NCBI GenBank assembly: GCA_964626935.1
Contig: CAZVIU010000003.1
Location: 1-36,290, forward strand
Reading direction: 5' to 3'
DNA: 36,290 nucleotides
Origin: an uncultured Gammaproteobacteria bacterium
GTDB taxonomy: Bacteria; Patescibacteriota; Patescibacteriia; CAZVIU01
Made by a program: the position numbers and the translations under genes. Every line of letters starts with the position of its first letter. Position 1 is the stretch's first letter. The notes beneath the pieces were generated by a model, which was not told where the DNA came from, made no database searches, and was given only the letters and a program-made list of their open reading frames with translations. Shown in pieces: positions 3,181 through 31,424 of the stretch.

Positions 3181-3386
3181 GAGCCCGAAGCACCTTGGGC
3201 GCTTCTGGTTTTATTCTTGGGCCCGAAGCACCTTGGGCGCTTCGGGCCCGGCTATAGGCTTATCTTGTTTTGATCAGTTTATCGTGTTAATATCTTTGAG
3301 TCGGTTTGGTTATGAGCCCGAAGCGTCTTGGGCGTTTCGGATTTGGTTATATTTTCGGCCCGAAGCGCCCAAGGCGCTTCGGGCCC
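3181..3386. repeat. Four copies of palindromic REP-like element GCCCGAAGCRC-N4-6-GCGCTTCGGGC
   Basis: Copies lie at 3181-3208, 3219-3249, 3314-3340 and 3357-3386. Full copies read GGGCCCGAAGCACCTTGGGCGCTTCGGGCCC and are followed by a conserved RGCTAYNNGCT tail. Confidence 0.9.
3265..3293 (+). promoter_or_regulatory. Putative sigma70-type promoter for the first Wzy_C-TPR gene
   Basis: TTGTTT (3265-3270), a 17-nt spacer ending in TGT (extended -10), then TAATAT (3288-3293). This is a pattern match only. It would place REP copies 3 and 4 in the 5' UTR. Confidence 0.25.
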
Positions 3387-3392
3387 AGCTAT

Positions 3393-5744
3393 ATGCTAAA
3401 ATTTATTCGTAATCTTTTCTTATTTTCACCACTGATTTTTTTCGCTTACACGCCGTGGACTTTATATCCGGCGATCTTTGGCCGGACGATCATTTTTCAG
3501 ATCATTGTTGAAGTGATATTAGTTATAGTTATACTTGCTAATTTATTTGGGCGATCGTTAACCGGCGGAGAATTAGGAATTAAGCCCCGACGTAAAGCCC
3601 CGATATCTAAGATACAGGCTGCCGATCATAGTATCGGCACCCAAAGCGCTATTAGGAGCGCTTCGGGCTTTGTTTTGGGCCCGAAGCGCCTTGAGCGCTT
3701 CGGGCCCAGCTACTGGCTTCTCGGGATCCCAACCGAAGCGTCGGGAAATTATGAATTATGGGGACGAGCTAAGGAGATATTTTTTTCACCAATTGGGGCG
3801 AGCCTAATAATTTTTACTCTAGTTCAGTTTGTTTCTTATCTCTTTTCAGTTGATCAAGAGGCAAGCTTTTGGGGAAGTATGTCGCGAATGGATGGCATAT
3901 TTAGCTGGCTGCATATGGCAGCGCTTTTCTTTTTATTAGTTGCATTTTTGGATAAATCTGCCTGGTCCAAATTTTTAAAAATTAATGTTGTCATCGCTGG
4001 GGTCCTAAGTATTTTAGCCGTGATTCAGCATTTTTACGACCCTGTTCCTAAATATATAATTCAATCCGGTCGAGTTTATGCCACTTTTGGCAACCCAGTG
4101 TTTTTTGCCCTGTATTTATTGTTCACGATTTTTCTTACATTATATTTTTTATTGGGAGTTGAAACGAAACAAACATTGAGCCCGAAGCGCTATTATGAGC
4201 GCTTCGGGCTCAACAGACGACGCGTTGCGAAATATTTTTTTATCGGAATGCTCGCGATTTTACAAATAGTCGCGCTTTTTTGGACTGGGAGTCAGGGAGC
4301 AATTGGAGGATTTTTGGTTGGGATTTTGGTTCTTAGTTTAATAGGATTAATAAGGCAGTTCACTACCCCAGAGGTGGCGGCCACGCAAAGAATTAAGTTA
4401 GTGAGACTCATGGGAATTATAGGTATCGTCGGACTCATAAGTTTCATGGGTTTTTTCAAATTAGGTTTGGGGCAATTCGTTCGGTTACGCGAGCTTTCTT
4501 CAGTTGAAGGATTAGAAGCCCGAACAACTGTTTGGAAAATGGGTTTACAAGGATTTAAGGAACGGCCGATTTTGGGATTTGGCCCGTCAACTTTTGAATA
4601 CGTTTTTGATAAATATTATAATCCTGAACTTTTGCGGCACTCTTTTTACGAAACCGTTTCTAACAAGCCGCATAATATTTTTGTGGAAACGCTTGATCAT
4701 TTGGGGACTTTGGGATTTTTAAGTTATTTAGGTATATTTACCGCCGCCATCCTTGTTTTGCGAAAAATTAGAAAAATAGATTTTAAATTAGCTGTTATTG
4801 GTTTCGGACTTTTAGTCGCCTATCTTGGGGCCTTGCAATTTTCTTTTGATACAACTAATTCGTGGTATATGTTTGTGGTATTTTTGGCCTATATAACAGC
4901 AAGAGAACAAGAGAACAAGAGAACAAGAGAACAAGAGAACAGCGGGACTCTGTATCAGTCCGGTGGCCAGCCGATGGATACAAGACGGGCATCAAAACAT
5001 AAAAATAAACTTGTTTTCATGTTTTCATGTTTTAATGTTTTAGTGATAGCGGCGGCATTGTGGTTTGGCAACATTGAAGCTTGGGCGGCATCGGTACCCG
5101 GAGCCAGATCAAAAAATAAGTATTGGTTTCAAAAACCAATTAAGTGGGCCAATGAAGTTAGGAAAGCTATTGACGGGCCAAGTCCATATCATGATGAAAT
5201 TCGCGTAATTTTCGCGCAAGACTTGATCAAGTGGGAGGCGGGCGGCAATCTGCCAATGGTTGAGATTCAAGATCAAGTTAGTTTACTTAGGAGCAAGCTA
5301 GAAGAGAGCGCGAGTCAACACCCAAGTAATTTTCAATATCGTTTTACTTCGGCACAAATACAAGGCATTGAGGCAGAGAATTTTGACATGGCTAGATTAG
5401 GTGAAGCCATCAATTCCGCGCGTCAAGCGCGAGACTTATCACCGCGTCGTCAAGCGGCCTATTTAATTTTAGGCAAGCTTTTGCTTCAAAATGGAGATTT
5501 AAGAAGCGCCGAAGAGTTTGCGAATAAAGCGGTTGAGTTATATAAATTTGCCCCAGAATCGCACTGGTTTTTGGGCATAATCAAAAGCGCTGAAGAAAGA
5601 CTAGATGAAGCTGTTGCCGAATTCAGGCTGGCTCGTGAACTTGGCTACGATTTTAAGCCGCAAGAGATAATTTATTGGATGAGTATTAATAAAAAACGTG
5701 ATAGGGCGGAAGAGAATGATGAGCTAAGGTTGCTGCTTCAGTAA
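3393..5744 (+). CDS. O-antigen-ligase-family (Wzy_C) polytopic membrane protein with C-terminal TPR domain, paralog 1 (carries in-frame repeat insertions)
   Basis: The N-terminus MLKFIRNLFLFSPLIFFAYTPWTLYP aligns with paralogs 2-4. Shared motifs are SVDQEASFWGSMSRMDG, GNPVFFALYL, TGSQGA and ILGFGPSTFEYVFDKYYNPELLRHSFYETVSNKPHNIFVETL. The C-terminal TPR-like helices carry LSPRRQ and ESHWFLG. The ORF is open back to 3306 only because two REP copies are stop-free, so ATG 3393 is preferred. Confidence 0.8.
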   Translation: MLKFIRNLFLFSPLIFFAYTPWTLYPAIFGRTIIFQIIVEVILVIVILANLFGRSLTGGELGIKPRRKAPISKIQAADHSIGTQSAIRSASGFVLGPKRLERFGPSYWLLGIPTEASGNYELWGRAKEIFFSPIGASLIIFTLVQFVSYLFSVDQEASFWGSMSRMDGIFSWLHMAALFFLLVAFLDKSAWSKFLKINVVIAGVLSILAVIQHFYDPVPKYIIQSGRVYATFGNPVFFALYLLFTIFLTLYFLLGVETKQTLSPKRYYERFGLNRRRVAKYFFIGMLAILQIVALFWTGSQGAIGGFLVGILVLSLIGLIRQFTTPEVAATQRIKLVRLMGIIGIVGLISFMGFFKLGLGQFVRLRELSSVEGLEARTTVWKMGLQGFKERPILGFGPSTFEYVFDKYYNPELLRHSFYETVSNKPHNIFVETLDHLGTLGFLSYLGIFTAAILVLRKIRKIDFKLAVIGFGLLVAYLGALQFSFDTTNSWYMFVVFLAYITAREQENKRTREQENSGTLYQSGGQPMDTRRASKHKNKLVFMFSCFNVLVIAAALWFGNIEAWAASVPGARSKNKYWFQKPIKWANEVRKAIDGPSPYHDEIRVIFAQDLIKWEAGGNLPMVEIQDQVSLLRSKLEESASQHPSNFQYRFTSAQIQGIEAENFDMARLGEAINSARQARDLSPRRQAAYLILGKLLLQNGDLRSAEEFANKAVELYKFAPESHWFLGIIKSAEERLDEAVAEFRLARELGYDFKPQEIIYWMSINKKRDRAEENDELRLLLQ
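3644..3707. repeat. REP-like palindromes (one partial, one full copy) inside paralog-1 CDS
   Basis: 3644-3669 is AAGCGCTATTAGGAGCGCTTCGGGC (partial). 3677-3707 is GGGCCCGAAGCGCCTTGAGCGCTTCGGGCCC (full). They are translated in-frame as ..SAIRSASGFVLGPKRLERFGPSYW. Confidence 0.9.
4178..4211. repeat. REP-like palindrome inside paralog-1 CDS
   Basis: GAGCCCGAAGCGCTATTATGAGCGCTTCGGGCTC is read in-frame as LSPKRYYERFGL, in a loop that is shorter in paralogs 2-4. Confidence 0.9.
4901..4940 (+). repeat. Perfect octamer array (AAGAGAAC)x5 inside CDS
   Basis: This is a direct read of five exact units, translated REQENKRTREQEN. Confidence 0.95.
5013..5042 (+). repeat. Octamer array GTTTTCAT/GTTTTAAT x3.7 inside CDS
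   Basis: GTTTTCAT GTTTTCAT GTTTTAAT GTTTTA is translated FMFSCFNVL. The same array type occurs at 31392-31424 and, reverse-complemented, at 25549-25580. Confidence 0.9.
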
Positions 5745-5786
5745 AAATAAGCCATGGATTAATTGCGAATTGCAGTTTTCAGATTG

Positions 5787-5828
5787 CAAATTATAAATCT
5801 GAAATTTTAAATCATAAATTTGAAATTA
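5787..5828 (+). repeat. Heptamer array (NAAATYN)x6 abutting start codon of paralog 2
   Basis: CAAATTA TAAATCT GAAATTT TAAATCA TAAATTT GAAATTA ends 3 nt before ATG 5832. Confidence 0.8.
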
Positions 5829-5831
5829 TTT

Positions 5832-8054
5832 ATGTCTTTAGAAAAAGTGTGTTTTAAAATTTTGCGTCTTGGTGTTTATGCGAGCCTGGTCGCGCCTTTT
5901 TTTGTATTTCCGTGGACAATTTATCCGTATCTTTATGCCAAGGCATTATACATTAATATTATTGTAGCTGTAATGCTGCCATTTTACGTAGTTTTATTAA
6001 CCACAAATCCGGATTTTCGACCTAAAAAAAATCCCCCAACTATTGCCGTAATAGCATTTTTTCTTATCTTAATAGTTTCTAGTATTTTTAGTCCTGATCC
6101 GGGGCGGGCTTTTTGGGGAACACAAGAAAGATCAGCCGGACTATTTTTTCTGGCGCATTACTTCTTATTATTTTTAATCGCCAGCTCTATTTTTCGTAAC
6201 GAGGAGAGCTGGAAGAAACTTTTAATATTTTCTCTTTTTATAAGCATACTTGTCGCTGGCGGAACTTGGTGGGATATTGCCATGGAAAAAATCTGGAAGC
6301 CCGGAGCAGGGACAAGAACTGGCGGCACCTTGTCTAACCCTATTTTTTATGCCGCCTATCTCTTATTTCACATCCCCCCATCCCTTTGGTTAAGTTTCTC
6401 GGGTCGTAAAAAGGCGCATAAAATTGCTTGGCTGGCCGTTTTTATTTTTCTTAGTATTTCTTTGTTTTATACGCTTACTCGTGGCGCCCTACTTGGTTAC
6501 TTTGGTATGTTTTTCTTTGGTTTAATTTTAACTGGCTTATGTGTACAGAGATACCGAAAATGGATGTTTTTAGCTTCTAGTTTGATAGTAGTTTTTTTTG
6601 CCTTGATTTTTTTATTACGAACCAACCCGGTAATTTTAAAAAATCCGATATTAGGACGCCTCGCTTCGATTTCGCCCAAAGAAATAACCGCCCTAACCCG
6701 GCTAGAAGCTTGGCAAATTGCTTGGTATGGCTTTAAAGAAAAACCGATTTTAGGCTGGGGGCCGGAAAATTATTACGCTATTTTTAATAAATTTTATAAT
6801 CCAAAACTCTTGCGTTTTTCATATTATGAAACCTGGTCTGATAAACCGCACAGCATTGTTTTTGAAATTTTATCAACAACTGGTTTTTTGGGTCTAGCGG
6901 CTTATCTTGCGATCTATGGGTTGATCCTTGCTCATGGTTTTAAAAAATTGCGTAAAAAAACCATATCGGCAAAATTAACCATTCCGCTTTTAATGATTTT
7001 TGTCGGGTTTTTTATACAAAATCTTTTTGGTATTGATACAGTGAGTACCTACCTGATGTTTTATATCTTATTGGCTTTTGCCGGGTTTATTTTATATCCT
7101 ACAAATACTATAAGTCCCGTGAGTTTTGTAAGATCCGTAAACCCGATAGGAAATGTAAAACGTCCGGTAATTCTTGCCGGTATTGCAACAAGCATTCTTT
7201 CTCTTGTTTCAATCTGGCAATGGAACATCAAACCTGCTTACGCAGGCCATCTTACAGCCAAAGCAACAACCGTGGAGAATTTTGGTGCGGCTACGGATCT
7301 TTGGCAAAAAGCGTTAGATATTAAACATCCGTGGGCTTACGATGCCCAAGTTGAATACTTAAAAGGCATCACGAGAATAGTTCAGCGATCAGCAAATACG
7401 CAGTTTGAAGACTTAAAACCACTTCTCTTGCGCGGCGAGATGGCGGCAGAAGACCTAACAGCCAGTCACAAGCAAAATGCCTATTTTAATTATTTAGCCG
7501 GTAGATTTTATAGTGAATGGGGCAAGTTTGAATTTAAATATTTTGTTGAAGCAGAAAAATTATTTAAAAAATCTATTGAATTGAGCCCGCGTCGTCAGCA
7601 GCTTTTTTATGGTTTGGGTAGAATGTATTTGCTTTCCGGAAGAACTGACCAATCCTTAAAAGTATTTGAAGATTTAGTTAAGCTTGATCCCGGGGTTGAT
7701 GAATCTCACTGGTTTTATGGTTTGGCCCTGCGTCAAGCTGATCGCGGAGTCCAAGCCTACGAAGAGATAAAAGAGGCCATTCGTTTAGGATACAATGCGG
7801 TTGATTCAGGAGAGGTATTAGTTTTAGCCGAAGTAGCCACAAAAGAAAATGACCTCAAGGCGCTTCAAAAAATTTATGAAAACGCGATTGCCATTGATCC
7901 TAAGAATGGTGATTGGCACGCCCGGTTGGCGGCGTTGTATTTAGAATTGGGAAGAAAGGATGAGGCGCGCAAATTAGTTATCAGGGCAGTAGAGTTGGAC
8001 CCGACGCTTAAAGAAGAAGCAACCAAATTTTTGAAATTATTAGAAATTCAGTAG
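5832..8054 (+). CDS. Wzy_C (O-antigen-ligase family) membrane protein with C-terminal TPR domain, paralog 2
   Basis: Motifs are SPDPGRAFWGTQERSAG, TRGALLG and ILGWGPENYYAIFNKFYNPKLLRFSYYETWSDKPHSIVFEIL, with about 10-12 hydrophobic helices. TPR motifs are ELSPRRQQLFYGLGRMYLLSGR and DPKNGDWHARLAALYLELGRKDEARKLVIRAVELDP. ATG 5832 is preferred over the track's TTG 5820. Confidence 0.85.
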   Translation: MSLEKVCFKILRLGVYASLVAPFFVFPWTIYPYLYAKALYINIIVAVMLPFYVVLLTTNPDFRPKKNPPTIAVIAFFLILIVSSIFSPDPGRAFWGTQERSAGLFFLAHYFLLFLIASSIFRNEESWKKLLIFSLFISILVAGGTWWDIAMEKIWKPGAGTRTGGTLSNPIFYAAYLLFHIPPSLWLSFSGRKKAHKIAWLAVFIFLSISLFYTLTRGALLGYFGMFFFGLILTGLCVQRYRKWMFLASSLIVVFFALIFLLRTNPVILKNPILGRLASISPKEITALTRLEAWQIAWYGFKEKPILGWGPENYYAIFNKFYNPKLLRFSYYETWSDKPHSIVFEILSTTGFLGLAAYLAIYGLILAHGFKKLRKKTISAKLTIPLLMIFVGFFIQNLFGIDTVSTYLMFYILLAFAGFILYPTNTISPVSFVRSVNPIGNVKRPVILAGIATSILSLVSIWQWNIKPAYAGHLTAKATTVENFGAATDLWQKALDIKHPWAYDAQVEYLKGITRIVQRSANTQFEDLKPLLLRGEMAAEDLTASHKQNAYFNYLAGRFYSEWGKFEFKYFVEAEKLFKKSIELSPRRQQLFYGLGRMYLLSGRTDQSLKVFEDLVKLDPGVDESHWFYGLALRQADRGVQAYEEIKEAIRLGYNAVDSGEVLVLAEVATKENDLKALQKIYENAIAIDPKNGDWHARLAALYLELGRKDEARKLVIRAVELDPTLKEEATKFLKLLEIQ

Positions 8055-8160
8055 AAATTAGTTAGAAATTAAATAGAAATTAAGTATAAATAAATAGAAA
8101 TTAGCTCGCTCACGCTCGCGAAATTAGGTTACAACCTAATTTCTACTTAATTTCTACTTC
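8041..8160. repeat. Composite spacer element: phased TAGAAATT direct repeats, central hairpin, inverted AATTTCTA repeats
   Basis: TAGAAATT lies at 8041, 8052, 8063, 8074 and 8095 (11-nt phase, with degenerate TATAAATA at 8085). The hairpin AAATTAGGTT-AC-AACCTAATTT is at 8121-8142. AATTTCTA lies at 8138 and 8149. The array overlaps the paralog-2 stop codon TAG at 8052-8054. Confidence 0.85.
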
Positions 8161-8186
8161 GTTTCGTGAAGCTAATTTTTTTATTT

Positions 8187-10440: not shown

Positions 10441-10553
10441 GAAATTCGGTGGAAATTTGATAGAAATTATCCCCATCTAAATCCTCCCCCTGCGATACAG
10501 GGGGAGGAAGTAGGAGAGGGTTAATTTCAACTGAATTTCGCGCAGTGAATTTC
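10441..10553. repeat. Composite spacer element: phased GAAATT repeats, GC hairpin, inverted AATTTC repeats
   Basis: GAAATT lies at 10441, 10452 and 10463 (11-nt phase). The hairpin CCTCCCCCTG-CGATA-CAGGGGGAGG is at 10483-10507. AATTTC lies at 10523, 10534 and 10548. The architecture matches 8041-8160. Confidence 0.85.
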
Positions 10554-12856: not shown

Positions 12857-14014
12857 TTAATATTTGTATAGCTTAACCGTTTTTATAAGCATTTTGTCAA
12901 AGTTGAATTTTTCTTGGAATTGCCTCGCGGTAGCGTGGCTTAAATTGTTGCGTAACTCTTGATTATCAATAAATTTTTTAAGAGCATTTACAATTGCCCT
13001 TGAATCAGCTGGCGGCACTAAAAGGCCGCTTGTTTCATTTTCTAACATTTCTGGTATGGCGCCCACATTTGTCGCTATAATTGGCACACCGGCTTGTATA
13101 GCTTCAAGCAAGGCATAAGGCAGACCCTCTTTTACCGAAGGGAGCACAAAGAGGTCAAAGGCCTTTAGATAGCGAGCTGCATCAGGCAGGGAGCCGATAA
13201 GATAAAAATTTTGCAATCCATAATTCTTAATTCTTAATTCTAAATTCTCGCGTTCTGGGCCAGAACCGATAATGATGAAACTTGGTTCGACCCCTTCTTT
13301 CTTAAGTACGGCTGCTGCATCAATGAGATATTCAATACCCTTGGTTTTATAAAGATTGGCGATGGTGATAATCCACAGCGGGGAATTAAGAATTGAGAAT
13401 TTAGAATTAAGCTTTGCACGCGCCTCATCGCGTGAAAGAAAACTAATTGGATTGATGCCGTGGGGGATTATGGCAAGTTTTTCCTGATCGCAGATTTTAT
13501 TTTTTAGCGCGGCGGCATAATCATATTGAGAGAGCGTAATTATTCTATCGTGAATTTTGCCAGCAACGCGCTCCATAAATACATATAGTTTTTTGCGCCA
13601 CCAAGGCAGAGGTTCGTTAAAAACCCAGCCGTGGGCAGTGTAAATTAATTTAGGTTTTAGGTTGTAGGTTGTAGGTTGTAGGAATTTTTTAGCCACTGTG
13701 CTGATGAGGCTGGCTTTGGAGCTATTTAGATGGACGATGCTGGGCTGCTCCTTTTTAAAAAATTGTGCTAGCTCAAAAATTGCCGCGATATCTTTAAGCG
13801 GATTAATTTCACGGACGAGATTTTTAAAAGTATGCGTATTAATATCCGCTTCTTTGCATTTTTGTATCAATTCCTGACTACCCTCCGCGCCAGATGCAAC
13901 AGTAATATCAAACTCATCTTTTAAGGCAGTTGCCAAATCAAAAACATAGGCTTGCGCGCCACCCCATTCGCCTTGAGTTACCACATAAATTAGCTTTAAT
14001 TTTGCTGGTTGCAT
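12857..14014 (-). CDS. GT4-family (GT-B) glycosyltransferase
   Basis: The N-terminus is KLIYVVTQGEWGGAQAYVFDLA. The C-terminal donor-binding motif is FVLPSVKEGLPYALLEAIQAGVPIIATNVGAIPEMLENETSGLLVPP (EX7E). Confidence 0.9.
   Translation of the reverse strand: MQPAKLKLIYVVTQGEWGGAQAYVFDLATALKDEFDITVASGAEGSQELIQKCKEADINTHTFKNLVREINPLKDIAAIFELAQFFKKEQPSIVHLNSSKASLISTVAKKFLQPTTYNLKPKLIYTAHGWVFNEPLPWWRKKLYVFMERVAGKIHDRIITLSQYDYAAALKNKICDQEKLAIIPHGINPISFLSRDEARAKLNSKFSILNSPLWIITIANLYKTKGIEYLIDAAAVLKKEGVEPSFIIIGSGPERENLELRIKNYGLQNFYLIGSLPDAARYLKAFDLFVLPSVKEGLPYALLEAIQAGVPIIATNVGAIPEMLENETSGLLVPPADSRAIVNALKKFIDNQELRNNLSHATARQFQEKFNFDKMLIKTVKLYKY
13221..13248. repeat. Heptamer array TAATTCT x4 inside GT4 CDS
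   Basis: TAATTCT TAATTCT TAATTCT AAATTCT is read on the minus strand as ENLELRIKNY. Confidence 0.9.
13383..13411. repeat. Heptamer array GAATTAA x4, inverted partner of 13221-13248, inside the same CDS
   Basis: GAATTAA GAATTGA GAATTTA GAATTAA G is read on the minus strand as KLNSKFSILNS. It lies 134 nt from the inverted array. Confidence 0.9.
13651..13682. repeat. Heptamer array TAGGTTK x4.6 inside GT4 CDS
   Basis: TAGGTTT TAGGTTG TAGGTTG TAGGTTG TAGG is read on the minus strand as QPTTYNLKPK. Confidence 0.9.
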
Positions 14015-14076
14015 ATAAGCATTGATCTTGATATTATAGTGTGATATAGTGGTTTATTCAAGTATCTGATTATTGA

Positions 14077-14140
14077 GCGTTTAGCGCATAGCGGTTAGCG
14101 TTTAGTTAATTGTTCTAAACCCTAAACCCTAAACCCTAGG
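14077..14140. repeat. Two heptamer arrays in divergent intergenic region
   Basis: GCGTTTA GCGCATA GCGGTTA GCGTTTA lies at 14077-14104. CTAAACC CTAAACC CTAAACC CTAGG lies at 14115-14140 and ends at the TTG start at 14141. Confidence 0.85.
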
Positions 14141-15139: not shown

Positions 15140-15220
15140 TAATTAAGTCATTGGTCACTAAGTCATTGAGACAATTTTAAATGACTGTTAATTACTTAAT
15201 TACTTAATTACTTAATGACT
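15140..15220. repeat. Inverted octamer arrays spanning the spacer between SDR and GT4 genes
   Basis: The left arm is TAATTAAGTCATT..CTAAGTCATT. The right arm is AAATGACT GTTAATTA CTTAATTA CTTAATTA CTTAATGA. CTTAATTA is the reverse complement of TAATTAAG. The element begins right after the stop codon at 15137-15139, and ATG 15215 lies in its last unit. Confidence 0.85.
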
Positions 15221-16495
15221 CGAGTTGTAATCTTCAGCACCTTCTACGAGCCCTTTATGTCTGGGGCCGAACGAATGGTTAAAGAAGTAGTAGAGCGGTT
15301 GCAAGAGCGCTATTCGTTTATAATTGTTACTTCTCGTTTAAGACGCAATTTGCCCCAGTTTGTTGAGGTCGAACATCGACGCACTTTGCAGCGAGCAGGA
15401 GCGAGCGAAAGAAGGAGGTTCGACCTCGATGACAGTCGAATTAAAATTGTGCGGATCGGTTTTGGTTGGAAATTTGATAAATTTTTGTATCCAATTCTCG
15501 CGCCGTTTTACGCATTAAGATATAGGCCGAAGATTGTTCACGCGATAATGGAGAGCTACGCGGGAATCGCGCTTTTAGTTTATTCGTATCTCGCCAAACT
15601 TTCAAAACCCTTAATTCTTAATTCTCAATTCTTAATTCTAACCTTACGGCGGAGATCGAATCTCGACGCACTCTGCAGCGAGCAGGAGCGAGCGAAAGAA
15701 GGAGATTCGATCTCGCATAAAAATGTATTCACCATTCTAACACTCCAGAGCGGTGACCTTGACCTACCAGAAAAACAGGCGCGGATTCCTAGGTGGCTTT
15801 GGAAGCGAATACATTGTGCGCCCAATCTCATAGTTTCTATTGGAAATTCAATGGCCGAGCGTGCAAGAAAGTTGGGAGCAAAGAGTGTTCGAGTTATTCC
15901 CAACGGTGTTAATCTTACGGAGGTCCGACCTCCAAATATACGGAGGTCGGACCTCCGTCAACATCATATTGTATGTGTTGCCCGTCTTTCTCCTGAAAAG
16001 GGAATTGAATATCTAATCGAAGCAATGCCCTTCGTAATAGCGCAATACCCTGATGCCGAGCTGGTTTTGGTGGGAAATGGCGCATTGAGAGAAAAGCTAC
16101 AAGCTACAAGCTACAAGCTACAAGCTCATGTTGAGTTTAGAGGCACGTTATCTCATGAGAAAACTCTTGAAGAAATGGCCACCTCTGATATTCTCGTTTT
16201 GCCATCTTTAGCCGAGGGCATGGGCATTGTGTTAGTCGAAGCTCAAGCGCTCGGCGTTCCAGTAATCGGTACTAATGTTGGCGGTATTCCAGATGTTATT
16301 GAGCACGAAAGAACAGGCCTGCTCGTGCCGCCACATGACCCGCGCGCAATCGCGCAAGCAGTCATTCGCTTATTTCATGATCACGAACTAAGAGAACGCA
16401 TGGTTGTTGAAGCGGAAACGCGTCTTCTTAAATTTGATTGGCAGAAGATCGCGGAAGAATATAGGAACATTTATGATCAGGTATCAAGCGTATAA
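15215..16495 (+). CDS. GT4-family glycosyltransferase carrying five in-frame repeat insertions
   Basis: The C-terminal motif is ILVLPSLAEGMGIVLVEAQALGVPVIGTNVGGIPDVIEHERTGLLVPP, and ARLSPEKGIEYLIEA is present. The N-domain is interrupted by repeat-encoded segments (see repeats at 15365, 15611, 15652, 15917 and 16094). Confidence 0.85.
   Translation: MTRVVIFSTFYEPFMSGAERMVKEVVERLQERYSFIIVTSRLRRNLPQFVEVEHRRTLQRAGASERRRFDLDDSRIKIVRIGFGWKFDKFLYPILAPFYALRYRPKIVHAIMESYAGIALLVYSYLAKLSKPLILNSQFLILTLRRRSNLDALCSEQERAKEGDSISHKNVFTILTLQSGDLDLPEKQARIPRWLWKRIHCAPNLIVSIGNSMAERARKLGAKSVRVIPNGVNLTEVRPPNIRRSDLRQHHIVCVARLSPEKGIEYLIEAMPFVIAQYPDAELVLVGNGALREKLQATSYKLQAHVEFRGTLSHEKTLEEMATSDILVLPSLAEGMGIVLVEAQALGVPVIGTNVGGIPDVIEHERTGLLVPPHDPRAIAQAVIRLFHDHELRERMVVEAETRLLKFDWQKIAEEYRNIYDQVSSV
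15365..15427 (+). repeat. 63-nt hairpin element, copy 1 (GAGGTCGAAC-N43-GTTCGACCTC)
   Basis: It has a 10-bp perfect stem and is translated EVEHRRTLQRAGASERRRFDL, with element position 1 at codon position 1. Confidence 0.9.
15611..15640 (+). repeat. Heptamer array TTAATTC x4.3 inside CDS
   Basis: TTAATTC TTAATTC TCAATTC TTAATTC TA is translated LILNSQFLIL. Confidence 0.9.
15652..15714 (+). repeat. 63-nt hairpin element, copy 2 (GAGATCGAAT-N43-ATTCGATCTC)
   Basis: The core CGACGCACTYTGCAGCGAGCAGGAGCGAGCGAAAGAAGGAG matches copy 1, which differs at one position within it (the Y). It is read in a different frame, as RRSNLDALCSEQERAKEGDSIS. Confidence 0.9.
15917..15957 (+). repeat. Two adjacent copies of palindrome ACGGAGGTCSGACCTCC inside CDS
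   Basis: Copies lie at 15917-15933 and 15940-15957 and are translated TEVRPPNIRRSDLR. The arms resemble the stem of the 63-nt element. Confidence 0.9.
16094..16127 (+). repeat. Heptamer array (AAGCTAC)x4 perfect plus a partial unit, inside CDS
   Basis: This is a direct read, translated KLQATSYKLQA. Confidence 0.95.
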
Positions 16496-17880: not shown

Positions 17881-17887
17881 TAGTGTG
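17856..17887. repeat. Perfect 32-nt palindrome spanning the stop codon of the GT4 gene
   Basis: CACACTATCATACTAT|ATAGTATGATAGTGTG. The TGA stop at 17878-17880 lies in the right arm. It encodes the C-terminal tail STLSYYIV and is a candidate terminator hairpin. Confidence 0.9.
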
Positions 17888-22538: not shown

Positions 22539-23567
22539 ATGGAACTTTTGATTATTACTCAGAAAGTTGATTTAGTCGATCCAATACTCGGCTTTTTTCA
22601 TCGTTGGATTGAAAAATTTGCGCATCACTTTGAGAGAGTAGAAGTTATCGCGTTGGAAGTTAGAGAACATAATCTACCAGCAAATGTTTCAGTGCATTCC
22701 TTGGGAAAAGAAAAAGGTTATGGAAGATTGCATCGTGCTATATTCTATATTCTGTATTCTATATTCTTGCGATATGACGCGGTTTTTGTTCACATGAACC
22801 CAGAATATCTCGCTCTTTTCGGTTGGTACTGGAAATTGATGGGCAAACGCACAGCGCTATGGTACACGCATAAATCAGTAACCTGGTGGTTATGCTTGGC
22901 GGAGAAATTTGCTGATAAGATTTTTACCGCATCGCGCGAAAGTTTTCGCTTGCCGAGCAGAAAGGTTGAGATTATTGGACATGGGATAGAGATGGAACTT
23001 TTCATAAGAACACAAGAACACAAGAACACAAGAACAAATTTACGATTATTATCGGTCGGAAGAATAGCATCCAGTAAAGACTTGGAGACGATTATTCGCG
23101 CAGCTCAAAAATTATCTAACGACGGTATACAGGTTACGCTTGATATTGTTGGAGCGCCTGTAATGGGTGCTGATTTTGAATATGAGAAAGCACTGCATGA
23201 GACTATTAAAAATCTAAACCCTGAAGACGTCATTAAATTTTTAGGTCCGAAGAATTATGAAGGAATGCCCAAGATTTATGGTGAACACGATTTATTGATT
23301 CATACATCCAAAACAGGAAGTGTTGATAAAGTCGTTCTTGAAGCGCTCGCCTGTGGCACGCCAGTAATAAGTTCAAGCGAGGCATTCCACGATCTTCCAG
23401 AATATCTGCGGTTTAAGGAAAATGATGTAGAAGATTTGGCCAGTAAAATAATTAATTTCACGCAAGTCAAACCAGACATATCAAAATTGACTGAATTAGT
23501 TCGTAGCCAAAGCAATCTCGACACACTAATTAAAAAAATATCCAATTTTCTAAATTCTGCATTCTAA
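22539..23567 (+). CDS. Glycosyltransferase (GT-B/GT4-like, short form)
   Basis: Motifs are LLIITQKVDLVDPILGFFHRWIEKFA, LSVGRIASSKDLETIIRAA and LLIHTSKTGSVDKVVLEALACGTPVISSS. The stop codon lies inside a heptamer array. Confidence 0.8.
   Translation: MELLIITQKVDLVDPILGFFHRWIEKFAHHFERVEVIALEVREHNLPANVSVHSLGKEKGYGRLHRAIFYILYSIFLRYDAVFVHMNPEYLALFGWYWKLMGKRTALWYTHKSVTWWLCLAEKFADKIFTASRESFRLPSRKVEIIGHGIEMELFIRTQEHKNTRTNLRLLSVGRIASSKDLETIIRAAQKLSNDGIQVTLDIVGAPVMGADFEYEKALHETIKNLNPEDVIKFLGPKNYEGMPKIYGEHDLLIHTSKTGSVDKVVLEALACGTPVISSSEAFHDLPEYLRFKENDVEDLASKIINFTQVKPDISKLTELVRSQSNLDTLIKKISNFLNSAF
22738..22767 (+). repeat. Heptamer array CTATATT x4 inside CDS
   Basis: CTATATT CTATATT CTGTATT CTATATT is translated AIFYILYSIF. 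Confidence 0.85.
23006..23037 (+). repeat. Octamer array (AAGAACAC)x3 plus AAGAACAA inside CDS
   Basis: This is a direct read, translated RTQEHKNTRT. The family matches 4901 and 31355. Confidence 0.95.
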
Positions 23568-23582
23568 ATTCTATATTCTTGT
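23548..23582 (+). repeat. Heptamer array TTCTNNA x5 containing the gene's stop codon
   Basis: The array is TTCTAAA TTCTGCA TTCTAAA TTCTATA TTCTTGT. TAA 23565-23567 lies in unit 3. Confidence 0.85.
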
Positions 23583-23686: not shown

Positions 23687-23707
23687 AAGCTACAAGCTAT
23701 AAGCTAT
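23687..23707 (+). repeat. Heptamer array AAGCTAY x3 abutting asnB-like start codon
   Basis: AAGCTAC AAGCTAT AAGCTAT ends 2 nt before ATG 23710. Confidence 0.9.
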
Positions 23708-23709: not shown

Positions 23710-25557
23710 ATGTGCGCTATCAACGGATTTAATTTCCGGGATGAAAATTTAATACAACGAATGAACAAAGTAACACGCCATCGCGGCCCTGACGATACTG
23801 GTATCGCCCTTTTTGATAATTGCTCGCTTGGGCATGATCGCTTAAGTATTATTGATCTTTCATCCCGTGGTCGTCAGCCCATGAGTACGGCCGATGACCG
23901 TTACACTATTACTTATAATGGTGAGCTTTATAATTTTAAAGAAATCCGCGATGAGCTTGCGGGAAAATATAAATTTAGTTCTGATTCTGATACCGAAGTT
24001 GTTTTATATGCCTATGCTGAATGGGGCGCCCAAATGTTAAAAAGATTAAATGGTATTTTTGCCTTTGCAATTTATGATAGAGACAAGAATGAATTATTTT
24101 TAGCGCGAGACCGAGCAGGCGTTAACCCGCTTTATTACTATCATGACGGTAAACGTTTTTTCTTTTCTTCAGAAATGAAGGCGATACTTGAAGCAGGCAT
24201 GCCGCGCGCCGTAGATAAAACCGCGTTTAATCATTATATGCGGCTACTTTATGTTCCGGCGCCGCTTACGATGTTTGCGAATATTTTTAAACTTCCGGCT
24301 GCTCATTACGCATTTTTTCGAAACAACCAATTGTCAATTAGTGAATATTGGCGCGTAAGTGATTTTGAGGATTTACATGATTACGAAGACGCTAAAAACA
24401 TGATATTAAAAACAATAAAAGAAAGCGTTAGGTGGCAATTAATTTCAGATCGGCCGGTTGGAGTTTTTCTCTCTGGCGGCATTGATTCAACTGCTATTTG
24501 TGGCGCGGCGCGAGAATATATTCCGGGAAAAGTAAAAACATACTCTGTTGGTTATAAAGCAAACCTTGAAGAAGAAAAATACAATCACGATTTTTATCTG
24601 GCGCGTAAAACTGCCGAAGCGTGGAACACTGATCATCACGAATTAACTATTTCTGGAGCTGATGTTCGCGATAATTTAGAAAAGATTATTTATCATCTTG
24701 ATGAGCCCGTGGCAAATGCCACTGCCGCGTCTATGTTTTTGCTTGCGCGCGAAGCTAAACAAGATGTTGCGGTGGTGCTTGGCGGTGATGGCGGCGATGA
24801 GCTTTTTGGCGGCTATTCGCGTTATGCATTATCACGTTTTATCAGCCATTTTAGAGATAAACCAGTGCTCGTGCGGAAGATCGTAGAAACATTACTAAGA
24901 ATAAGCCGTAAAAGGGAAGTGCTTTTGAAGTTATCAACTAGTAGTGGAGCTGATCGCATCCTTACTTTCGTGGCCCAAAAGGATGATTTGCTTTGTAGCG
25001 TGTTGAATTCTAAAGTTTTTGATACGCAAGCAACGCATGATTTTTTTGAAAATAAATTCTTTCGTGGTGGTGTCCCCACGAATGACCTCGAGCGCTACTT
25101 TATGGAAGTTGATCGACAAACATGGCTCGTTGATGAATCGCTCCTCCGTTCTAACAAAATGACCTTAGCCCATGGGCTTGAGCAACGTGTGCCCATCTTG
25201 GATTACCGTATGATTGAGCTTACTGCTAAAATTCCAACAGCGTGGAAAATACGAGGAACGGGCACTTGTGCCGAAGGAAAAATTATTTGGAAAGAAGCCA
25301 TTGCCGGTTATCTGCCCGATCATATTAAGCGCGAACCAAAACGTGGGTGGTTTAGTCCAACAGCCAAGTGGCTTCGTGATGAATTACGTGAGACAGGAGA
25401 GGAGATCGTCTTTCGCGGATTAAACGAGGAACTTTTCAATAAAAAAGAAGTAGAGCGAATATGGCGCGATCACTTGGAATACCGTGAGTATAATGCTAAT
25501 ATAATTTGGGCGATCATAACATGGCATGTGTGGCATAAGACATTCGTTAAAACATGA
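23710..25557 (+). CDS. asnB: Asparagine synthase (glutamine-hydrolysing) family amidotransferase
   Basis: The N-terminus MCAINGF carries the Cys2 nucleophile of Ntn amidotransferases. HRGPDD and YNGELYN are present, as is the PP-loop VFLSGGIDST. In a glycan locus, a sugar or uronate amidotransferase role is as likely as Asn synthesis. Confidence 0.85.
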   Translation: MCAINGFNFRDENLIQRMNKVTRHRGPDDTGIALFDNCSLGHDRLSIIDLSSRGRQPMSTADDRYTITYNGELYNFKEIRDELAGKYKFSSDSDTEVVLYAYAEWGAQMLKRLNGIFAFAIYDRDKNELFLARDRAGVNPLYYYHDGKRFFFSSEMKAILEAGMPRAVDKTAFNHYMRLLYVPAPLTMFANIFKLPAAHYAFFRNNQLSISEYWRVSDFEDLHDYEDAKNMILKTIKESVRWQLISDRPVGVFLSGGIDSTAICGAAREYIPGKVKTYSVGYKANLEEEKYNHDFYLARKTAEAWNTDHHELTISGADVRDNLEKIIYHLDEPVANATAASMFLLAREAKQDVAVVLGGDGGDELFGGYSRYALSRFISHFRDKPVLVRKIVETLLRISRKREVLLKLSTSSGADRILTFVAQKDDLLCSVLNSKVFDTQATHDFFENKFFRGGVPTNDLERYFMEVDRQTWLVDESLLRSNKMTLAHGLEQRVPILDYRMIELTAKIPTAWKIRGTGTCAEGKIIWKEAIAGYLPDHIKREPKRGWFSPTAKWLRDELRETGEEIVFRGLNEELFNKKEVERIWRDHLEYREYNANIIWAIITWHVWHKTFVKT

Positions 25558-25580
25558 AAACATTAAAACATGAAAATAAT
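25549..25580. repeat. Octamer array AAAACATG x4 (reverse complement of the GTTTTCAT family) over the stop/start junction
   Basis: The array is AAAACATG AAAACATT AAAACATG AAAATAAT. It contains the asnB-like stop (25555-25557) and the ATG at 25554. Confidence 0.9.
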
Positions 25581-30484: not shown

Positions 30485-30518
30485 GCGAAATTGTTAATAA
30501 TGTGTTAGTTTATAAGAC

Positions 30519-31379
30519 ATGAAGCCTGATTTATCTATAATTATCGTAACTTGGAACGTGCGGAAATCGTTTGAACAATGCTTAAATTCAATCGACAAAT
30601 GGGTTGACGCGCCCTTTGAATTATTTGTTATTGATAATGCTTCCGGCGACAGCACCCGTGTTTTTTTGGAAAATTTTAAGCCCCAAAATCAATTTTTAGC
30701 TCGCTATGAAGTGATTTATAATAATCAAAATTATGGTTTGTCCAAGGCGGCCAATATGGGTATGAGCCGGGCGCAAGGCGAGTTTATATTGTTGCTTAAT
30801 CCTGACACAAAACTATTAGGTCCTGTTTTTAATAAAATGATTACGGTTGCTAAAAACCGGCCTCGTCTTGGCATGCTTGGATTTAAGATTATGAATCCCA
30901 GCGGCAAGGTTCAGTGGTCAATTTCAAGACTGCCAACACTTGTCCGTCAAATAGAATCGCGTCTTGGTCTTTGGCGGCCAAACTTTGATTATGATCAACC
31001 CCAGGAAGTTGAACAAATTAATGCCTCGGTGGCTTTAATGCCTAAAGCCGTTTTAGATGAGATCGGCCTTTGGGACGATGGTTTTTTCATTTGGTTTGAG
31101 GAGAATGATTTTTGTAAACGCGCTCATAACGCCGGTTACAAAATCTATTATAGTCCAGAAATACAGGTAATGCATGAAAGTCAAGCCGGAATTTCTAAGA
31201 TTCCAATGTGGAAACGGCAATTGATTTGGCAGAAAAGCATGTTTCGGTATTTTAGGAAGCACCACGGTTTGCCGCAGGCAATTATGGTGTCGATTCTAGA
31301 TCCTGCTTGCATGATGATAGGGATGGCGTTTCAAAAAATCAAAAAGCGTTTATTAGAACACAAGAACAAAAGAGCATAA
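30519..31379 (+). CDS. GT2-family glycosyltransferase (rhamnosyltransferase-like)
   Basis: Motifs are LSIIIVTWNVRKSFEQCLNSI, FVIDNASGDST, LLLNPDT and FEENDFCKR. The C-terminal tail LEHKNKRA is encoded by an octamer array. Confidence 0.85.
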   Translation: MKPDLSIIIVTWNVRKSFEQCLNSIDKWVDAPFELFVIDNASGDSTRVFLENFKPQNQFLARYEVIYNNQNYGLSKAANMGMSRAQGEFILLLNPDTKLLGPVFNKMITVAKNRPRLGMLGFKIMNPSGKVQWSISRLPTLVRQIESRLGLWRPNFDYDQPQEVEQINASVALMPKAVLDEIGLWDDGFFIWFEENDFCKRAHNAGYKIYYSPEIQVMHESQAGISKIPMWKRQLIWQKSMFRYFRKHHGLPQAIMVSILDPACMMIGMAFQKIKKRLLEHKNKRA

Positions 31380-31424
31380 AAACAATTTTTTGTTTTAATG
31401 TTTTCATGTTTTAATGTTTTAATG
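31355..31424 (+). repeat. Composite element: AGAACANA octamers, 13-nt spacer, GTTTTMAT octamers, spanning a stop-intergenic-start junction
   Basis: AGAACACA AGAACAAA AGAGCATA contains the TAA stop at 31377-31379. AAAACAATTTTTT follows, then GTTTTAAT GTTTTCAT GTTTTAAT GTTTTAAT G, which contains ATG 31422. It is homologous to 4901-5042. Confidence 0.9.

Follow-up and report, generated by a model that had tools for sequence, protein, structure and literature searches.

Comparable described systems are of two kinds. In neuO, a coding heptamer array leaves the gene ON only at multiples of three, and the gene is OFF in 65.6% of genomes (PMC13001214). An excess of heptamer simple sequence repeats (SSRs), with a mode of about four units, has been accompanied by a polymerase-slippage hypothesis (PMC4692102). 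The second kind comprises the Rickettsia palindromic elements (RPEs), which the in-frame palindromes of the present locus resemble. By analogy, the arrays described here may be regarded as neuO-type coding heptamers and the hairpins as RPE-like palindromes, known kinds of element that occur here in Patescibacteria. No description of such repeats in Patescibacteria was found in the literature.

Patescibacteria are ultra-small bacteria. The stretch analysed, here called the window, is an entire Patescibacteria contig of 36,290 bp and carries a surface-glycan locus, the genes of which are real by Pfam. Tandem Repeats Finder detects about 30 tandem arrays, the unit being 7 or 8 nt in nearly all of them, and there are also 13 perfect hairpins; shuffled sequence yields essentially no arrays or hairpins. 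Perfect arrays of at least three copies in the window have period 7 (n = 6) or 8 (n = 3), with none of periods 4–6 or 9–12, and no perfect array of period at least 7 appears in 200 dinucleotide shuffles. Period-7/8 arrays reach 5.5 per 10 kb in the window; unrelated bacterial loci totalling 471 kb have 0.11 per 10 kb, and the dominant tandem periods there are 9, 12, 15 and 21. An earlier note, made from the sequence alone, had described the modules as non-random, with SSR arrays and palindromes together at unusual density in glycan genes, and this description stands. Tandem Repeats Finder recovered its listed arrays where it had placed them, at 4900, 5012, 13221, 13383, 13651, 14115, 15610, 16094, 16711/16761, 17012, 18448, 18693, 22738, 23006, 23548, 23687, 25549, 31355 and 31391. 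The exception is the TTAATTC/GAATTAA array at 3568, a weak 2-unit trace only. Additional arrays were found at 14076, 15188, 17456 and 18046, and 11-nt arrays at 8033, 8137 and 10441. The proposed unit families are real: once rotated or reverse-complemented, the units of six pairs coincide, where 0.11 pairs are expected. An array-free stretch was likewise found by the program (18737-22738), the right half of the window being sparse.

The palindromes reported earlier are all present: seven of the GCCCGAAGCGC type, two ~64-nt hairpins and a double GGAGGTCSGACCTCC palindrome. Perfect stems of at least 11 bp number 13 in the window versus 0.13 in shuffles. The first of the seven copies, GC-rich and degenerate (3183..3208), lies in the spacer that follows the terminator (3137-3160); the second, also GC-rich, is intergenic (3219..3249; 11-bp perfect stem, -28.2 kcal/mol, z -4.4). 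The third (3313..3340) and fourth (3357..3385; 13-bp stem, read GPKRPRRFGP) lie in an N-terminal extension of ORF 3306-5744 that is missing in all homologues and is probably a 5' leader. Wzy1 contains the remaining three. The fifth copy, of a TATTAG-loop subtype, is read in a different frame as QSAIRSASG inside a loop insertion (3640..3669); the sixth (3676..3708; 14-bp stem, z -7.1) is inside a ~70-aa insertion between the first two hydrophobic segments; the seventh (4176..4213; 16-bp stem, z -10.9) corresponds to a ~15-aa insertion, SPKRYYERFGL. The ~64-nt element occurs twice on the + strand. Copy 1 (15365..15428, read as VEVEHRRTLQRAGAS...), in GT4 15215-16495, lengthens the sequence by 63 nt compared with the L001 orthologue, and copy 2 (15652..15715), which differs in frame and has two compensatory changes in its stem, is part of a 99-nt stretch inserted with respect to L001; AlphaFold gives pLDDT<50 at aa 53-72 and 148-168, respectively. 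Two GGAGGTCSGACCTCC palindromes form a 17-bp perfect hairpin (15917..15958, + strand; -39.3 kcal/mol, z -8.7) in a GT4 interdomain linker, with no length difference versus homologues. An AT-rich perfect palindrome (17856..17887; 16-bp stem) spans the stop codon of GT4 16573. The second copy of its family (18250..18279, + strand) is an 11-aa insertion in GT4 17918; in the L159 orthologue that codon position is taken up by two GC-rich hairpins unrelated to it. A 13-bp perfect hairpin (18931..18964, + strand) encodes a 12-aa insertion (NFDQWKFRFDQN) missing in all homologues.

Where arrays fall in genes, these are nearly always GT4 glycosyltransferases, and the arrays recur at a few structural hot spots; the target proposed earlier, envelope-glycan genes, was too broad. 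In the unbiased loci an array is carried by 28 of 190 GT4 genes versus 3 of 401 others (P = 6e-12). Array density per 10 kb in these loci is 1.60 in GT4 genes, 0.07 in other coding DNA and 3.0 in intergenic DNA, and arrays with a period that is a multiple of three show no GT4 enrichment there. No arrays occur in epimerases, GT2, AsnB, methyltransferases or three of the four Wzy genes. Model positions 235-249 accommodate fifteen arrays, whose units are of many kinds, and positions 177-194 eight. Inside ORFs the distribution of array lengths is bimodal, dipping at 21-26 nt and peaking at 30-35 nt; outside ORFs it is flat (Fisher P = 0.018). Since a length of ~31-34 nt holds for intergenic arrays too, frame selection does not explain it. 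A lineage-specific system, as previously supposed, is contradicted by similar 7/8-nt arrays in a patchy subset of Patescibacteria, with orthologues only 40-47% identical. Arrays and hairpins act like two distinct phenomena: in-ORF hairpins in loci elsewhere show no GT4 enrichment, and the hairpin families of the window were found only in its own species.

GT4 12857-14014 has three arrays on the - strand: (AGAATTA)4 in the post-GxG helix hot spot (13221..13248; ENLELRIKNY), where a variant unit avoids TAA, (TTAATTC)4.1 in the interdomain-linker hot spot (13383..13411; LNSKFSILNS) and (CAACCTA)4.6 (13651..13682; QPTTYNLKP). Just upstream of and over the start of GT4 15215-16495 lies (TTAATTAC)4.1 (15188..15220), where other assemblies have a contig break or are joined differently. 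Within this gene, on the + strand, (CTTAATT)4.3 (15610..15639; LILNSQFLIL) has a T>C variant that abolishes TAA; the perfect (AAGCTAC)4.7 (16094..16126; KLQATSYKLQA) is a hot-spot helix (291-302 by AlphaFold) and not an insertion, and both are kept in L001. GT4 16573-17880 carries, on the + strand, two (AAATCCG) arrays in a ~22-aa loop insertion (16711..16790; pLDDT<50 at aa 52-74 by AlphaFold), a perfect (AAAATCA)4.7 (17012..17044; QNQKSKIKNQK), shared with the distant orthologues L076 and L077, and (AAGATTT)4.9 in a hot-spot helix (17456..17494; GLRFKIKDLGL; helix 294-303, pLDDT>90 by AlphaFold). At these three sites L160 has, respectively, (AAGAATT)4.9 instead of AAATCCG, three CAAATTT units in the same register, and an identical AG-to-GA difference in each of three units. 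In GT4 17918-19153 (+ strand), a 12/14-nt GC-rich array, (ACGCGGATCTAC)3.8 (18046..18092), is followed by (AAGAATT)4.1 (18440..18476; ARIKNQELRI), whose 33-nt core (18440-18472) matches the corresponding L159 segment in reverse complement at 29/33 positions, and by (AAAAGCT/CAAGCTA)5.3 in the hot-spot helix (18693..18737), where L159 has (GAATTAA)3 of equal length. GT4 22539-23567 has (CTATATT)4.3 (22738..22767; AIFYILYSIFL) and a perfect (AAGAACAC)3.9 in the linker hot spot (23006..23036), both on the + strand, and (TTCTAAA)4.6 (23548..23579) spans its stop codon.

Modules inside genes are read in frame, as first noticed. Several that had been placed within ORFs, those at 3313, 3357, 15188, 23548, 25549, 31355 and 31391, instead lie at the edge of a gene or before its likely true start. 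Some modules are indeed insertions relative to orthologues; many arrays, by contrast, leave the length unchanged and rewrite a helix or linker that is already there. In AlphaFold models the inserted segments have pLDDT<50, and these low-confidence extra loops are probably disordered; hot-spot arrays form helices. Three 7-nt units encode exactly one 7-residue heptad, and other in-gene modules are in-register, length-neutral rewrites of an amphipathic helix. The label 'stop-free' does not describe a family property. Substitutions removing the stop are carried by 24 of 26 arrays with a stop-containing unit, and stop-free units are not commoner than background (63% in both); stop-freeness is therefore a survivorship effect, from selection rather than from the repeat units. 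In genes, only frame-keeping, stop-free versions persist, translated as passenger peptides.

Orthologue comparisons show that arrays are kept homogeneous and turn over fast, given the same substitution in each unit (L160), a constant-length family swap and a 33-nt in-place inversion (both L159). Unit-number heterogeneity, which the earlier note suggested looking for, exists. The independent assembly L003 lacks exactly one 8-nt AAGAACAC unit at 23006..23036, the sole difference in 8.9 kb, and the deletion splits GT4 22539-23567 into ORFs of 176 and 134 aa; this single OFF allele rests on one short-read assembly. The frame is unbroken throughout the window, as claimed, but not in L003.

It seems slightly better than an even bet that repeats arising by slippage and template switching, and filtered by translation, make GT4 genes frameshift-prone. 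Two kinds of fast-evolving DNA-level feature would have colonised the locus, namely simple-sequence arrays, built of 7- or 8-nt units and characteristically ~31-34 nt long in all, and short, perfect hairpins or palindromes of 28-64 nt. Slippage during replication and template switching would generate both, the lineage being strongly biased towards a 7-8-nt register; this bias is probably shared by other, patchily distributed Patescibacteria whose G+C content is low to moderate. Units of this length do not divide by three, so adding or dropping a single one throws the gene out of frame, an event seen once (GT4 22539-23567), and these glycosyltransferases may thereby be switchable at low frequency. 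Such switchability could itself be selected for; alternatively, it might be only in GT4 paralogues the cell can do without that arrays are able to last. The coding heptamers are like those of neuO. Against the overall reading, one OFF allele stands here beside 71 in-frame arrays within ORFs, versus 65.6% of genomes OFF for neuO. Seven arrays in the near-identical 16-kb loci L097 and L137 show no indel, and arrays are short (3-5 units), ~60% imperfect and not concentrated near 5' ends. The behaviour is phase-variation-like but weak. PheS and MurB, both essential, carry perfect arrays as well, so growth through frameshifted intermediates cannot be the sole route.

Further arrays lie in and around Wzy genes and at gene junctions. 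In Wzy1, a perfect 8-nt array, (CAAGAGAA)5.2 (REQENKRTREQEN; 4900..4941), pairs with its inverted partner (TGTTTTCA)3.8 (5012..5041) as an imperfect long hairpin (z -4.8). An AAATNNN array of 7/14/21-nt period (5788..5827) lies in the spacer that precedes Wzy2. An 11-nt array, (GAAATTAGTTA)6.6 (8033..8104), overlaps the Wzy2 stop codon; (TAATTTCTACT)2.1 (8137..8159) is its inverted partner, and (GAAATTCGATA)2.5 of the same family (10441..10468) lies just past the Wzy3 stop. Two intergenic 7-nt arrays, (AGCGTTT)4.3 and (CTAAACC)3.4 (14076..14138), both contain stop triplets, and (AAGCTAY)3 of the AAGCTAC family (23687..23707) is intergenic, upstream of asnB. Loss of one unit from (AAAACATG)3.5 (25549..25576), which lies over the asnB stop and the methyltransferase start, would fuse the two ORFs. 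Between GT2 30519 and RmlD, the inverted 8-nt pair (AGAACAMA)3.9 and (TGTTTTAA)4.2 (31355..31424) folds as a single long hairpin (z -7.3).

Within genes, the tandem 7- and 8-nt repeats (arrays) of the window are largely confined to one enzyme family, the family-4 glycosyltransferases (GT4). Their density is 16.7 per 10 kb in GT4 genes, 1.1 in other coding DNA and 4.3 in intergenic DNA. The window is a complete contig of 36,290 bp, and the analysis covered it together with fragments of related genomes. The genes of the locus are real, as judged by their Pfam matches. Six GT4 genes, named here by start coordinate, match Glycos_transf_1 and lie at 12857–14014 (minus strand), 15215–16495, 16573–17880, 17918–19153, 22539–23567 and 26382–27554. 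Four Wzy_C+TPR paralogues (numbered from Wzy1) occupy 3306–12786, and nucleotide-sugar enzymes, GT2s, AsnB and methyltransferases were identified by Pfam elsewhere in the window. A 979-aa ORF (128–3067, open to the contig start) is rich in Thr, Ser, Ala, Gly and Val, has no Pfam match, contains no arrays and is followed by a strong terminator hairpin (3137–3160); it looks like a surface or S-layer-type protein at the head of the glycan locus. The nearest named homologues of the window's proteins belong to Patescibacteria, Parcubacteria and Kaiserbacteria, and the taxonomy rests on these homologue names. An exact-protein look-up gave no match for AsnB, Wzy3 or the epimerase, the last differing by a single SNP at 15074. 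The spacers directly after the stops of two Wzy+TPR paralogues (27% identical) share an 11-nt array family, (GAAATTAGTTA)n, at 8033–8165 and 10441–10468; in the former spacer the array has an inverted partner, giving a long hairpin.

Tandem Repeats Finder recovered each array of the earlier note in place, together with unlisted ones, and the module count, coordinates and empty stretches reported there were borne out by this program, by shuffling and by a hairpin count. Perfect arrays of at least three copies in the window have period 7 (n = 6) or period 8 (n = 3), and none has a period of 4–6 or 9–12. Period-7/8 arrays number 5.5 per 10 kb. Unrelated bacterial loci totalling 471 kb have 0.11 per 10 kb and are dominated by periods 9, 12, 15 and 21, the pattern expected of coding DNA. 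Units recur within and between loci (6 pairs identical up to rotation or strand in the window against 0.11 expected, and 34 against 4.6), and their pooled composition is A 224, T 169, C 74 and G 65. Arrays consist of 3–5 units (maximum 8) and most are imperfect. In the window, fifteen lie inside ORFs, four at ORF edges and one in a spacer. Several modules of the earlier note are located at the edges of genes or within N-terminal extensions that are spurious: the two palindromes at 3313 and 3357 lie upstream of the point where all homologues begin, and the array at 31391 lies upstream of the likely MKVLILGA start of RmlD. Length is bimodal in ORFs, with a trough at 21–26 nt and a peak at 30–35 nt, and flatter outside them (Fisher P = 0.018); intergenic arrays likewise cluster near 31–34 nt. 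Growth in steps of three units, although supported in ORFs, was rejected as the sole cause of the ~32-nt length, because intergenic arrays share this length and hot-spot arrays are length-neutral. The spacer array (CCCTAAA)3.4 at 14115–14138 has the plant-type telomere unit, most likely by coincidence.

The earlier note had regarded the arrays as lineage-specific. The same phenomenon occurs in the closer loci L001, L159 and L160 and in the distant loci L076 and L077 (47% protein identity). Among 80 loci retrieved by conserved GT4 motifs unrelated to the repeats, arrays are patchy, reaching 8 per 10 kb in some AT-richer lineages, and none occurs above 58% G+C. A census by gene class covered 73 non-redundant loci (684 kb), with our own ORF calls and GT4 classification. 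Array density was 1.60 per 10 kb in GT4 genes, 0.07 in all other coding DNA and 3.0 in intergenic DNA; an array is present in 28 of 190 GT4 genes and in 3 of 401 others (odds ratio 23, P = 6e-12). The target is thus narrower than the envelope-glycan genes of the earlier note: within genes the restriction is to GT4. Arrays with a period that is a multiple of three show no GT4 enrichment. When placed on a GT4 profile, 15 arrays, built from many different units, map to positions 235–249, the helix after the GxG motif, and 8 to the interdomain linker, 177–194; these recurrent positions are referred to as hot spots. The rare hosts other than GT4 include the essential PheS and MurB, with the array in a variable loop. 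In L076, PheS has a perfect (AAAGTCA)4.7 array (13539–13571), and L077 has two perfect 31-nt (AAATCTC)4.4 arrays (300–330 and 10127–10157), one in MurB and the other in a GT4 gene. Arrays can therefore persist in essential genes, and growth solely through frameshifted intermediates in dispensable genes is contradicted. In-ORF hairpins of other loci show no GT4 enrichment, and a joint array-plus-hairpin system was accordingly rejected as a general rule. A full-text search of an incomplete literature library gave no description of such repeats in Patescibacteria.

Array sequences are filtered for compatibility with translation. Pooled over all loci, 71 arrays lie in ORFs, and 63% have stop-free units on the coding strand, which equals the 7-mer background frequency. 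The units of the remaining 26 contain a stop, and in 24 of these an idealized perfect array would place it in frame; in all 24 the real sequence carries one to three substitutions that remove it, as in the TTAATTC family. Most intergenic arrays contain stops. Freedom from stops, which had been put forward as a property of the repeat families, is thus not one, and the pattern is one of survivorship. The stop-removing substitutions, together with frame-preserving lengths, are good evidence that the segments are translated. Removal in the manner of an intron was dismissed, as selection on frame and stops implies translation.

The translated segments are of two kinds: true insertions relative to orthologues, and arrays that add no length. 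Insertions, which the earlier note had proposed to look for, comprise the two ~64-nt hairpins of GT 15215, the GC-rich palindromes in Wzy1, two hairpins in GT 17918 and, in GT 16573, the AAATCCG arrays and the region after the CAAAAAT array; many arrays, however, are length-neutral. AlphaFold models of two GT4 proteins (pTM 0.77 and 0.82) have a normal two-domain GT4-type fold, in which the hairpin- and array-encoded insertions that were checked have pLDDT below 50. At the helix after GxG, the native segment is replaced residue for residue by the array, for which the models show a helix. Seven codons, hence one heptad, span three 7-nt units, and the hot-spot peptides ENLELRIKNY, NLKFKIKNLKL and KLQATSYKLQA mimic the native amphipathic pattern L..LI..LGL. 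The repeat-encoded peptides of the window also include NQKSKIKNQK and GPKRLERFGPSY. Protein-level selection for heptads was dismissed as the source of the arrays, as units are identical at the nucleotide level.

Turnover is rapid and homogenizing. It was followed in three orthologous genes of a related species, with 62–85% nucleotide identity in the flanks. Some arrays are kept in position, unit and length. Others are rewritten in place. The 33-nt segment 18440–18472 matches the reverse complement of its orthologue at 29 of 33 positions, against 13 of 33 in direct orientation, and both versions are in frame. The hot spot of GT 17918 carries (AAGCTAN)n in the window and (GAATTAA)3 in the orthologue, at identical length, and elsewhere in this gene the two species have unrelated hairpins at the same codon position. 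In GT 16573, three CAAAAAT units are matched by three CAAATTT units, and in the hot-spot array an AG-to-GA difference is repeated in three units in the same register; this is concerted evolution. Differences between array alleles are whole-unit changes, an inversion or a family swap rather than adenine-specific, and no ORF of the window has a reverse-transcriptase domain; a diversity mechanism of the DGR type was rejected on both counts.

One allele differs in unit number. Over 8.9 kb, the sole difference between the window and L003, an ENA contig representing another assembly of the locus, is one AAGAACAC unit missing from the array at 23006–23036, as a result of which GT4 gene 22539–23567 is called as two ORFs of 176 and 134 aa. 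This OFF allele comes from one short-read assembly. The four to five independent assemblies of the species are otherwise identical to the window, with no other unit-number difference at ~13 arrays, and L097 and L137 show none between them. Altogether 71 in-frame arrays stand against one OFF allele, and a scan for arrays at which one unit more or fewer would restore a long ORF gave only two cases, both at ORF junctions. An alternative arrangement occurs in L078 (metagenome Ga0137829), where GT 15215 adjoins a divergently oriented dnaK start in place of the epimerase. The junction, seen in one short-read assembly, is the exact left edge of the (TTAATTAC)n array (15188–15220), and L003 also starts at 15187; it may reflect a true rearrangement at the array, or else a chimera or graph branch of the assembly. 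When the contig ends of other assemblies were compared with the repeats, an array was present only at 15187. Contig ends at 18871–18874, 24084 and 26620 are common to several independent assemblies and lie inside conserved GT4 or AsnB coding sequence without a repeat, which suggests strain-level structural heterogeneity of the glycan locus.

Hairpins form a second class of feature. The window has 13 perfect hairpins (stem of at least 11 bp, loop of at most 12), against 0.13 in shuffles, and six of them lie inside ORFs; two imperfect copies of a ~64-nt hairpin come in addition. Stems are 11–17 bp long, with z-scores from −3 to −10.9. GC-rich palindromes in Wzy1 are insertions relative to seven homologues, and two hairpins in GT 17918 are insertions of 11 and 12 aa. 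The ~64-nt element has 11–12-bp terminal inverted repeats and compensatory stem changes. Both copies lie in GT 15215, as additions of 63 and 99 nt that are absent from the orthologue in L001, and the 99-nt insertion holding copy 2 is flanked by an 8-nt direct repeat, ATTCTAAC; no comparable repeat accompanies copy 1. The ~64-nt element and the GC-rich palindromes are each read in two different frames, so that the encoded peptides are passengers. Copy numbers of the hairpin families within the 36-kb contig are 7, 2 and 2, the seven palindrome copies being both intergenic and in ORFs. Outside this species, the families were not found among 157 other loci. A scan of species-representative genomes with GCCCGAAGCGC-N4-9-GCGCTTCGGGC, among whose results the window's own organism is absent, gave 63 isolated hairpins in one or two copies each, mostly from unrelated, mainly GC-rich organisms, and Rfam at gathering thresholds identified no family. 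A Saccharimonadia MAG (L067) has GGGCCCGAAGCGC...GCGCTTCGGGCCC palindromes very like the GC-rich family at 1395–1422 and 3076–3101, in apparently non-coding DNA. A Hainich groundwater contig (L148, GC 0.57) has nine perfect in-ORF hairpins within 20 kb, with stems of up to 22 bp (for example 16768–16812, 17262–17303 and 19495–19536), and represents another lineage, unrelated to that of the window, in which hairpins occur inside genes and 7-nt arrays are few.

In the preferred reading, the arrays would be created and homogenized by slipped-strand mispairing or by template switching in a 7–8-nt register, and related template-switch or insertion events may have produced the hairpins. Unit lengths not divisible by three would leave GT4 genes prone to frameshifts, with low-frequency on/off switching as the consequence. 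Such switching may be under selection, as in true contingency loci; alternatively, dispensable paralogues may simply tolerate the arrays. Selection would mean that stochastic frameshifting of GT4 genes gives an episymbiotic cell a more varied surface glycan against phages or hosts. The mechanics would be the same, with second-order selection keeping the arrays as adaptive rather than tolerated features. This reading is tentative and on balance rather doubtful. It is favoured by unit size, as only 7- and 8-nt units occur, never 6 or 9, and triplet-compatible periods are totally absent. The ~23-fold enrichment in GT4 over other genes, to about half the intergenic density, points the same way and does not extend to multiple-of-three periods, and in one sample the natural OFF allele is the consensus sequence. 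Surface-glycan transferases are moreover classical targets of SSR phase variation, which include a coding heptamer in neuO. Against selection stand the 71 ON arrays to one OFF, tracts shorter than is typical of hypermutable loci and often imperfect, the presence of two to four mid-gene arrays per gene rather than a single 5′ tract, the arrays in PheS and MurB, and the lack of variation between L097 and L137. That there is nothing special to explain, the repeats being chance low complexity, protein-level selection for heptads or low complexity, assembly artefacts or decaying pseudogenes, is scarcely credible. The hot-spot helix is naturally heptad-like (homologue consensus L..LI..LGL) and the genome is AT-rich; however, 200 dinucleotide shuffles of the window yielded no array of period 7 or more, the excess over unrelated loci is 50-fold, units match one another perfectly at the nucleotide level, a match that selection on the protein would not preserve, the sequence is the same in four to five independent assemblies, and the uninterrupted ORFs match Pfam models over their full length and have confidently predicted folds. 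The tests thus already contradict this account.

Slippage or template switching in situ must also be set against two readings in which sequence is moved. The first treats the ~33-nt arrays and 28–64-nt hairpins as ready-made modules comparable to RPEs, MITEs, REPs or cyanobacterial SDRs: as miniature mobile elements they would be copied elsewhere, in forward or reverse orientation, and survive where they land in frame. Recurrence of units far above chance would follow from such copying, as would the identical 31-nt arrays in MurB and a GT4 gene of L077, the seven palindrome copies in spacers and ORFs, and the opposite orientation of the 18440 array in the orthologue. The ~64-nt element has the corresponding attributes: terminal inverted repeats, two copies in two frames, absence from L001 and, around the 99-nt insertion, the direct repeat. 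Nevertheless, mobility is unlikely. Most arrays are length-neutral and share the 7-nt register of the orthologue's array, which fits homogenization in situ and not insertion; hairpin copy 1 lacks a target duplication, the window lacks a transposase, and the hairpin families occur only in this species among the 157 loci, with isolated one- or two-copy hits in unrelated genomes and no Rfam match. Quite improbable is cassette-type segmental gene conversion among GT4 paralogues, in which arrays would serve as homology patches or exchangeable micro-cassettes that diversify the enzymes. Arrays do occupy the same helix in four window paralogues, and AAGCTAC arrays share frame and site in two. The L159 orthologue of GT 17918 carries LELRIKNYGLQN, of which 31 of 34 nt are identical to the hot-spot module of the non-orthologous GT 12857, and the alternative junction coincides exactly with the 15188 array. 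Arrays, at ~31–34 nt, are close to the shortest length that RecA-type recombination can use. However, homology alone accounts for some of the identity to GT 12857, because the shared flank partly encodes a conserved G-L motif; no gene was shown to be a mosaic joined at an array, arrays also lie in PheS, MurB and spacers, and the L078 junction could be chimeric. Mobility and gene conversion explain some facts, such as the recurring units, the MurB/GT4 array pair, the shared module and the 15188 junction, but are not demonstrated. A broader conjecture, again an unlikely one, is a clade-wide micro-cassette system on Patescibacteria GT4 genes: ~33-nt arrays of 7/8-nt units, and in some species hairpins, at fixed structural positions would be actively rewritten by inversion, exchange among paralogues or orthologues, homogenization, or gain or loss of one unit, through dedicated or strongly biased recombination or template switching. 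If true, it would combine on/off switching with sequence diversification of surface glycosylation in ultra-small episymbiotic bacteria.

Several known systems resemble the repeats, but each differs in at least one defining feature, and the window's repeats are therefore not classed as members of any. In function, the arrays are closest to the coding heptanucleotide of neuO in Escherichia coli K1 and, as a wider class, to SSR contingency genes that act on surface glycans. The (AAGACTC)n repeat of neuO is translated, the protein being full-length in one of three repeat-number phases, and slippage changes the number; it forms a single 5′ tract of 3–53 units, and 65.6% of genomes are OFF (PMC13001214). 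Both systems place a translated 7-nt unit within the coding sequence of a surface-glycan-modifying enzyme, and the allele one unit short truncates a GT4 gene of the window's locus. Here, by contrast, there are two to four mid-gene tracts of 3–5 units per gene, predominantly ON, with many unit families, 8-nt units as well, and hot spots that recur across a whole enzyme family. The SSRs of LOS, LPS and capsule genes in Haemophilus, Neisseria and Campylobacter are likewise non-triplet repeats concentrated in glycosyltransferase genes and switch by frameshifting. Those hosts are small-genome, host-associated bacteria, whereas the present lineage of Patescibacteria is environmental. Their units are mono- to penta-nucleotides, the tracts are long, perfect and close to the 5′ end, and measured rates of switching are high, whereas the window's tracts are short and often imperfect. 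In-ORF tracts of non-triplet units in genes for variable surface structures are thus common to both, while a large OFF share and long perfect tracts were not found here.

In sequence class, the arrays are closest to the heptameric long SSRs of Xanthomonas and Nostoc (STRR-type; Mrazek 2007; Rehm 2015). Among the long SSRs of these genomes, 7-nt units are selectively over-represented; the modal length is about four units, inverted pairs are frequent, close relatives differ in length and sequence, and polymerase slippage has been hypothesized (PMC4692102). The selective 7-nt excess, the modal length (a peak at 30–35 nt in the window) and the inverted pairs are shared. Those heptamers are G-rich, potentially G-quadruplex-forming and overwhelmingly intergenic, whereas the window's units are A/T-rich and three quarters of its arrays lie in genes, where they are restricted to GT4. 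The hairpins recall RPEs and intragenic MITEs. RPEs are palindromic, occur in spacers and in frame in protein genes, and encode surface-exposed, fold-compatible segments (PMC10969869). Like them, the window's hairpins are in-frame passengers with palindromic or terminal-inverted-repeat structure, inserted relative to orthologues that lack them. RPEs measure ~100–150 bp, have tens of copies genome-wide and encode one conserved peptide per family, whereas the hairpins are local, 28–64 nt long and read in several frames, and different hairpins take the same site in orthologues. The SDRs of Nostoc punctiforme, according to Elhai et al. in 2008, are said to be hairpin-forming elements of 21–27 nt with compensatory stem changes, often embedded in tandem heptamers; they are not known to form in-frame segments of genes. 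Copy 2 of the ~64-nt hairpin abuts the heptamer array at 15610, and the window's stems also show compensatory changes, but the phylum is different and there is no sequence similarity.

Patescibacteria (CPR) are ultra-small and thought to be mostly episymbiotic, so that the cell surface governs both host attachment and exposure to phages. To our knowledge, almost nothing is known of how they vary this surface. In a subset of them, GT4 genes are almost the only genes with frame-shifting 7/8-nt repeats, which occupy recurrent structural positions and turn over rapidly; at least one natural allele is OFF. If selected, the arrays would be the first indication of SSR-type phase variation outside the classical pathogens, in a major uncultivated radiation. 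If only tolerated, they would expose an unusual 7–8-nt bias of slippage or template switching and would show, as a natural experiment, which parts of a protein tolerate arbitrary peptides. In practice, arrays and hairpins in CPR metagenome bins can be expected to cause contig breaks, split gene calls and spurious N-terminal extensions. Two arrays lie where adjacent ORFs meet. At 25549–25576, (AAAACATG)3.5 covers the asnB stop and the methyltransferase start, and one unit fewer would fuse the two ORFs (623 + 226 aa). In L094, another of the compared loci, (AAATTCT)4.9 at 1443–1476 separates two GT4 ORFs that one additional unit would fuse; the product would be a double-GT4 protein like the ~740-aa fused homologues of other Patescibacteria.
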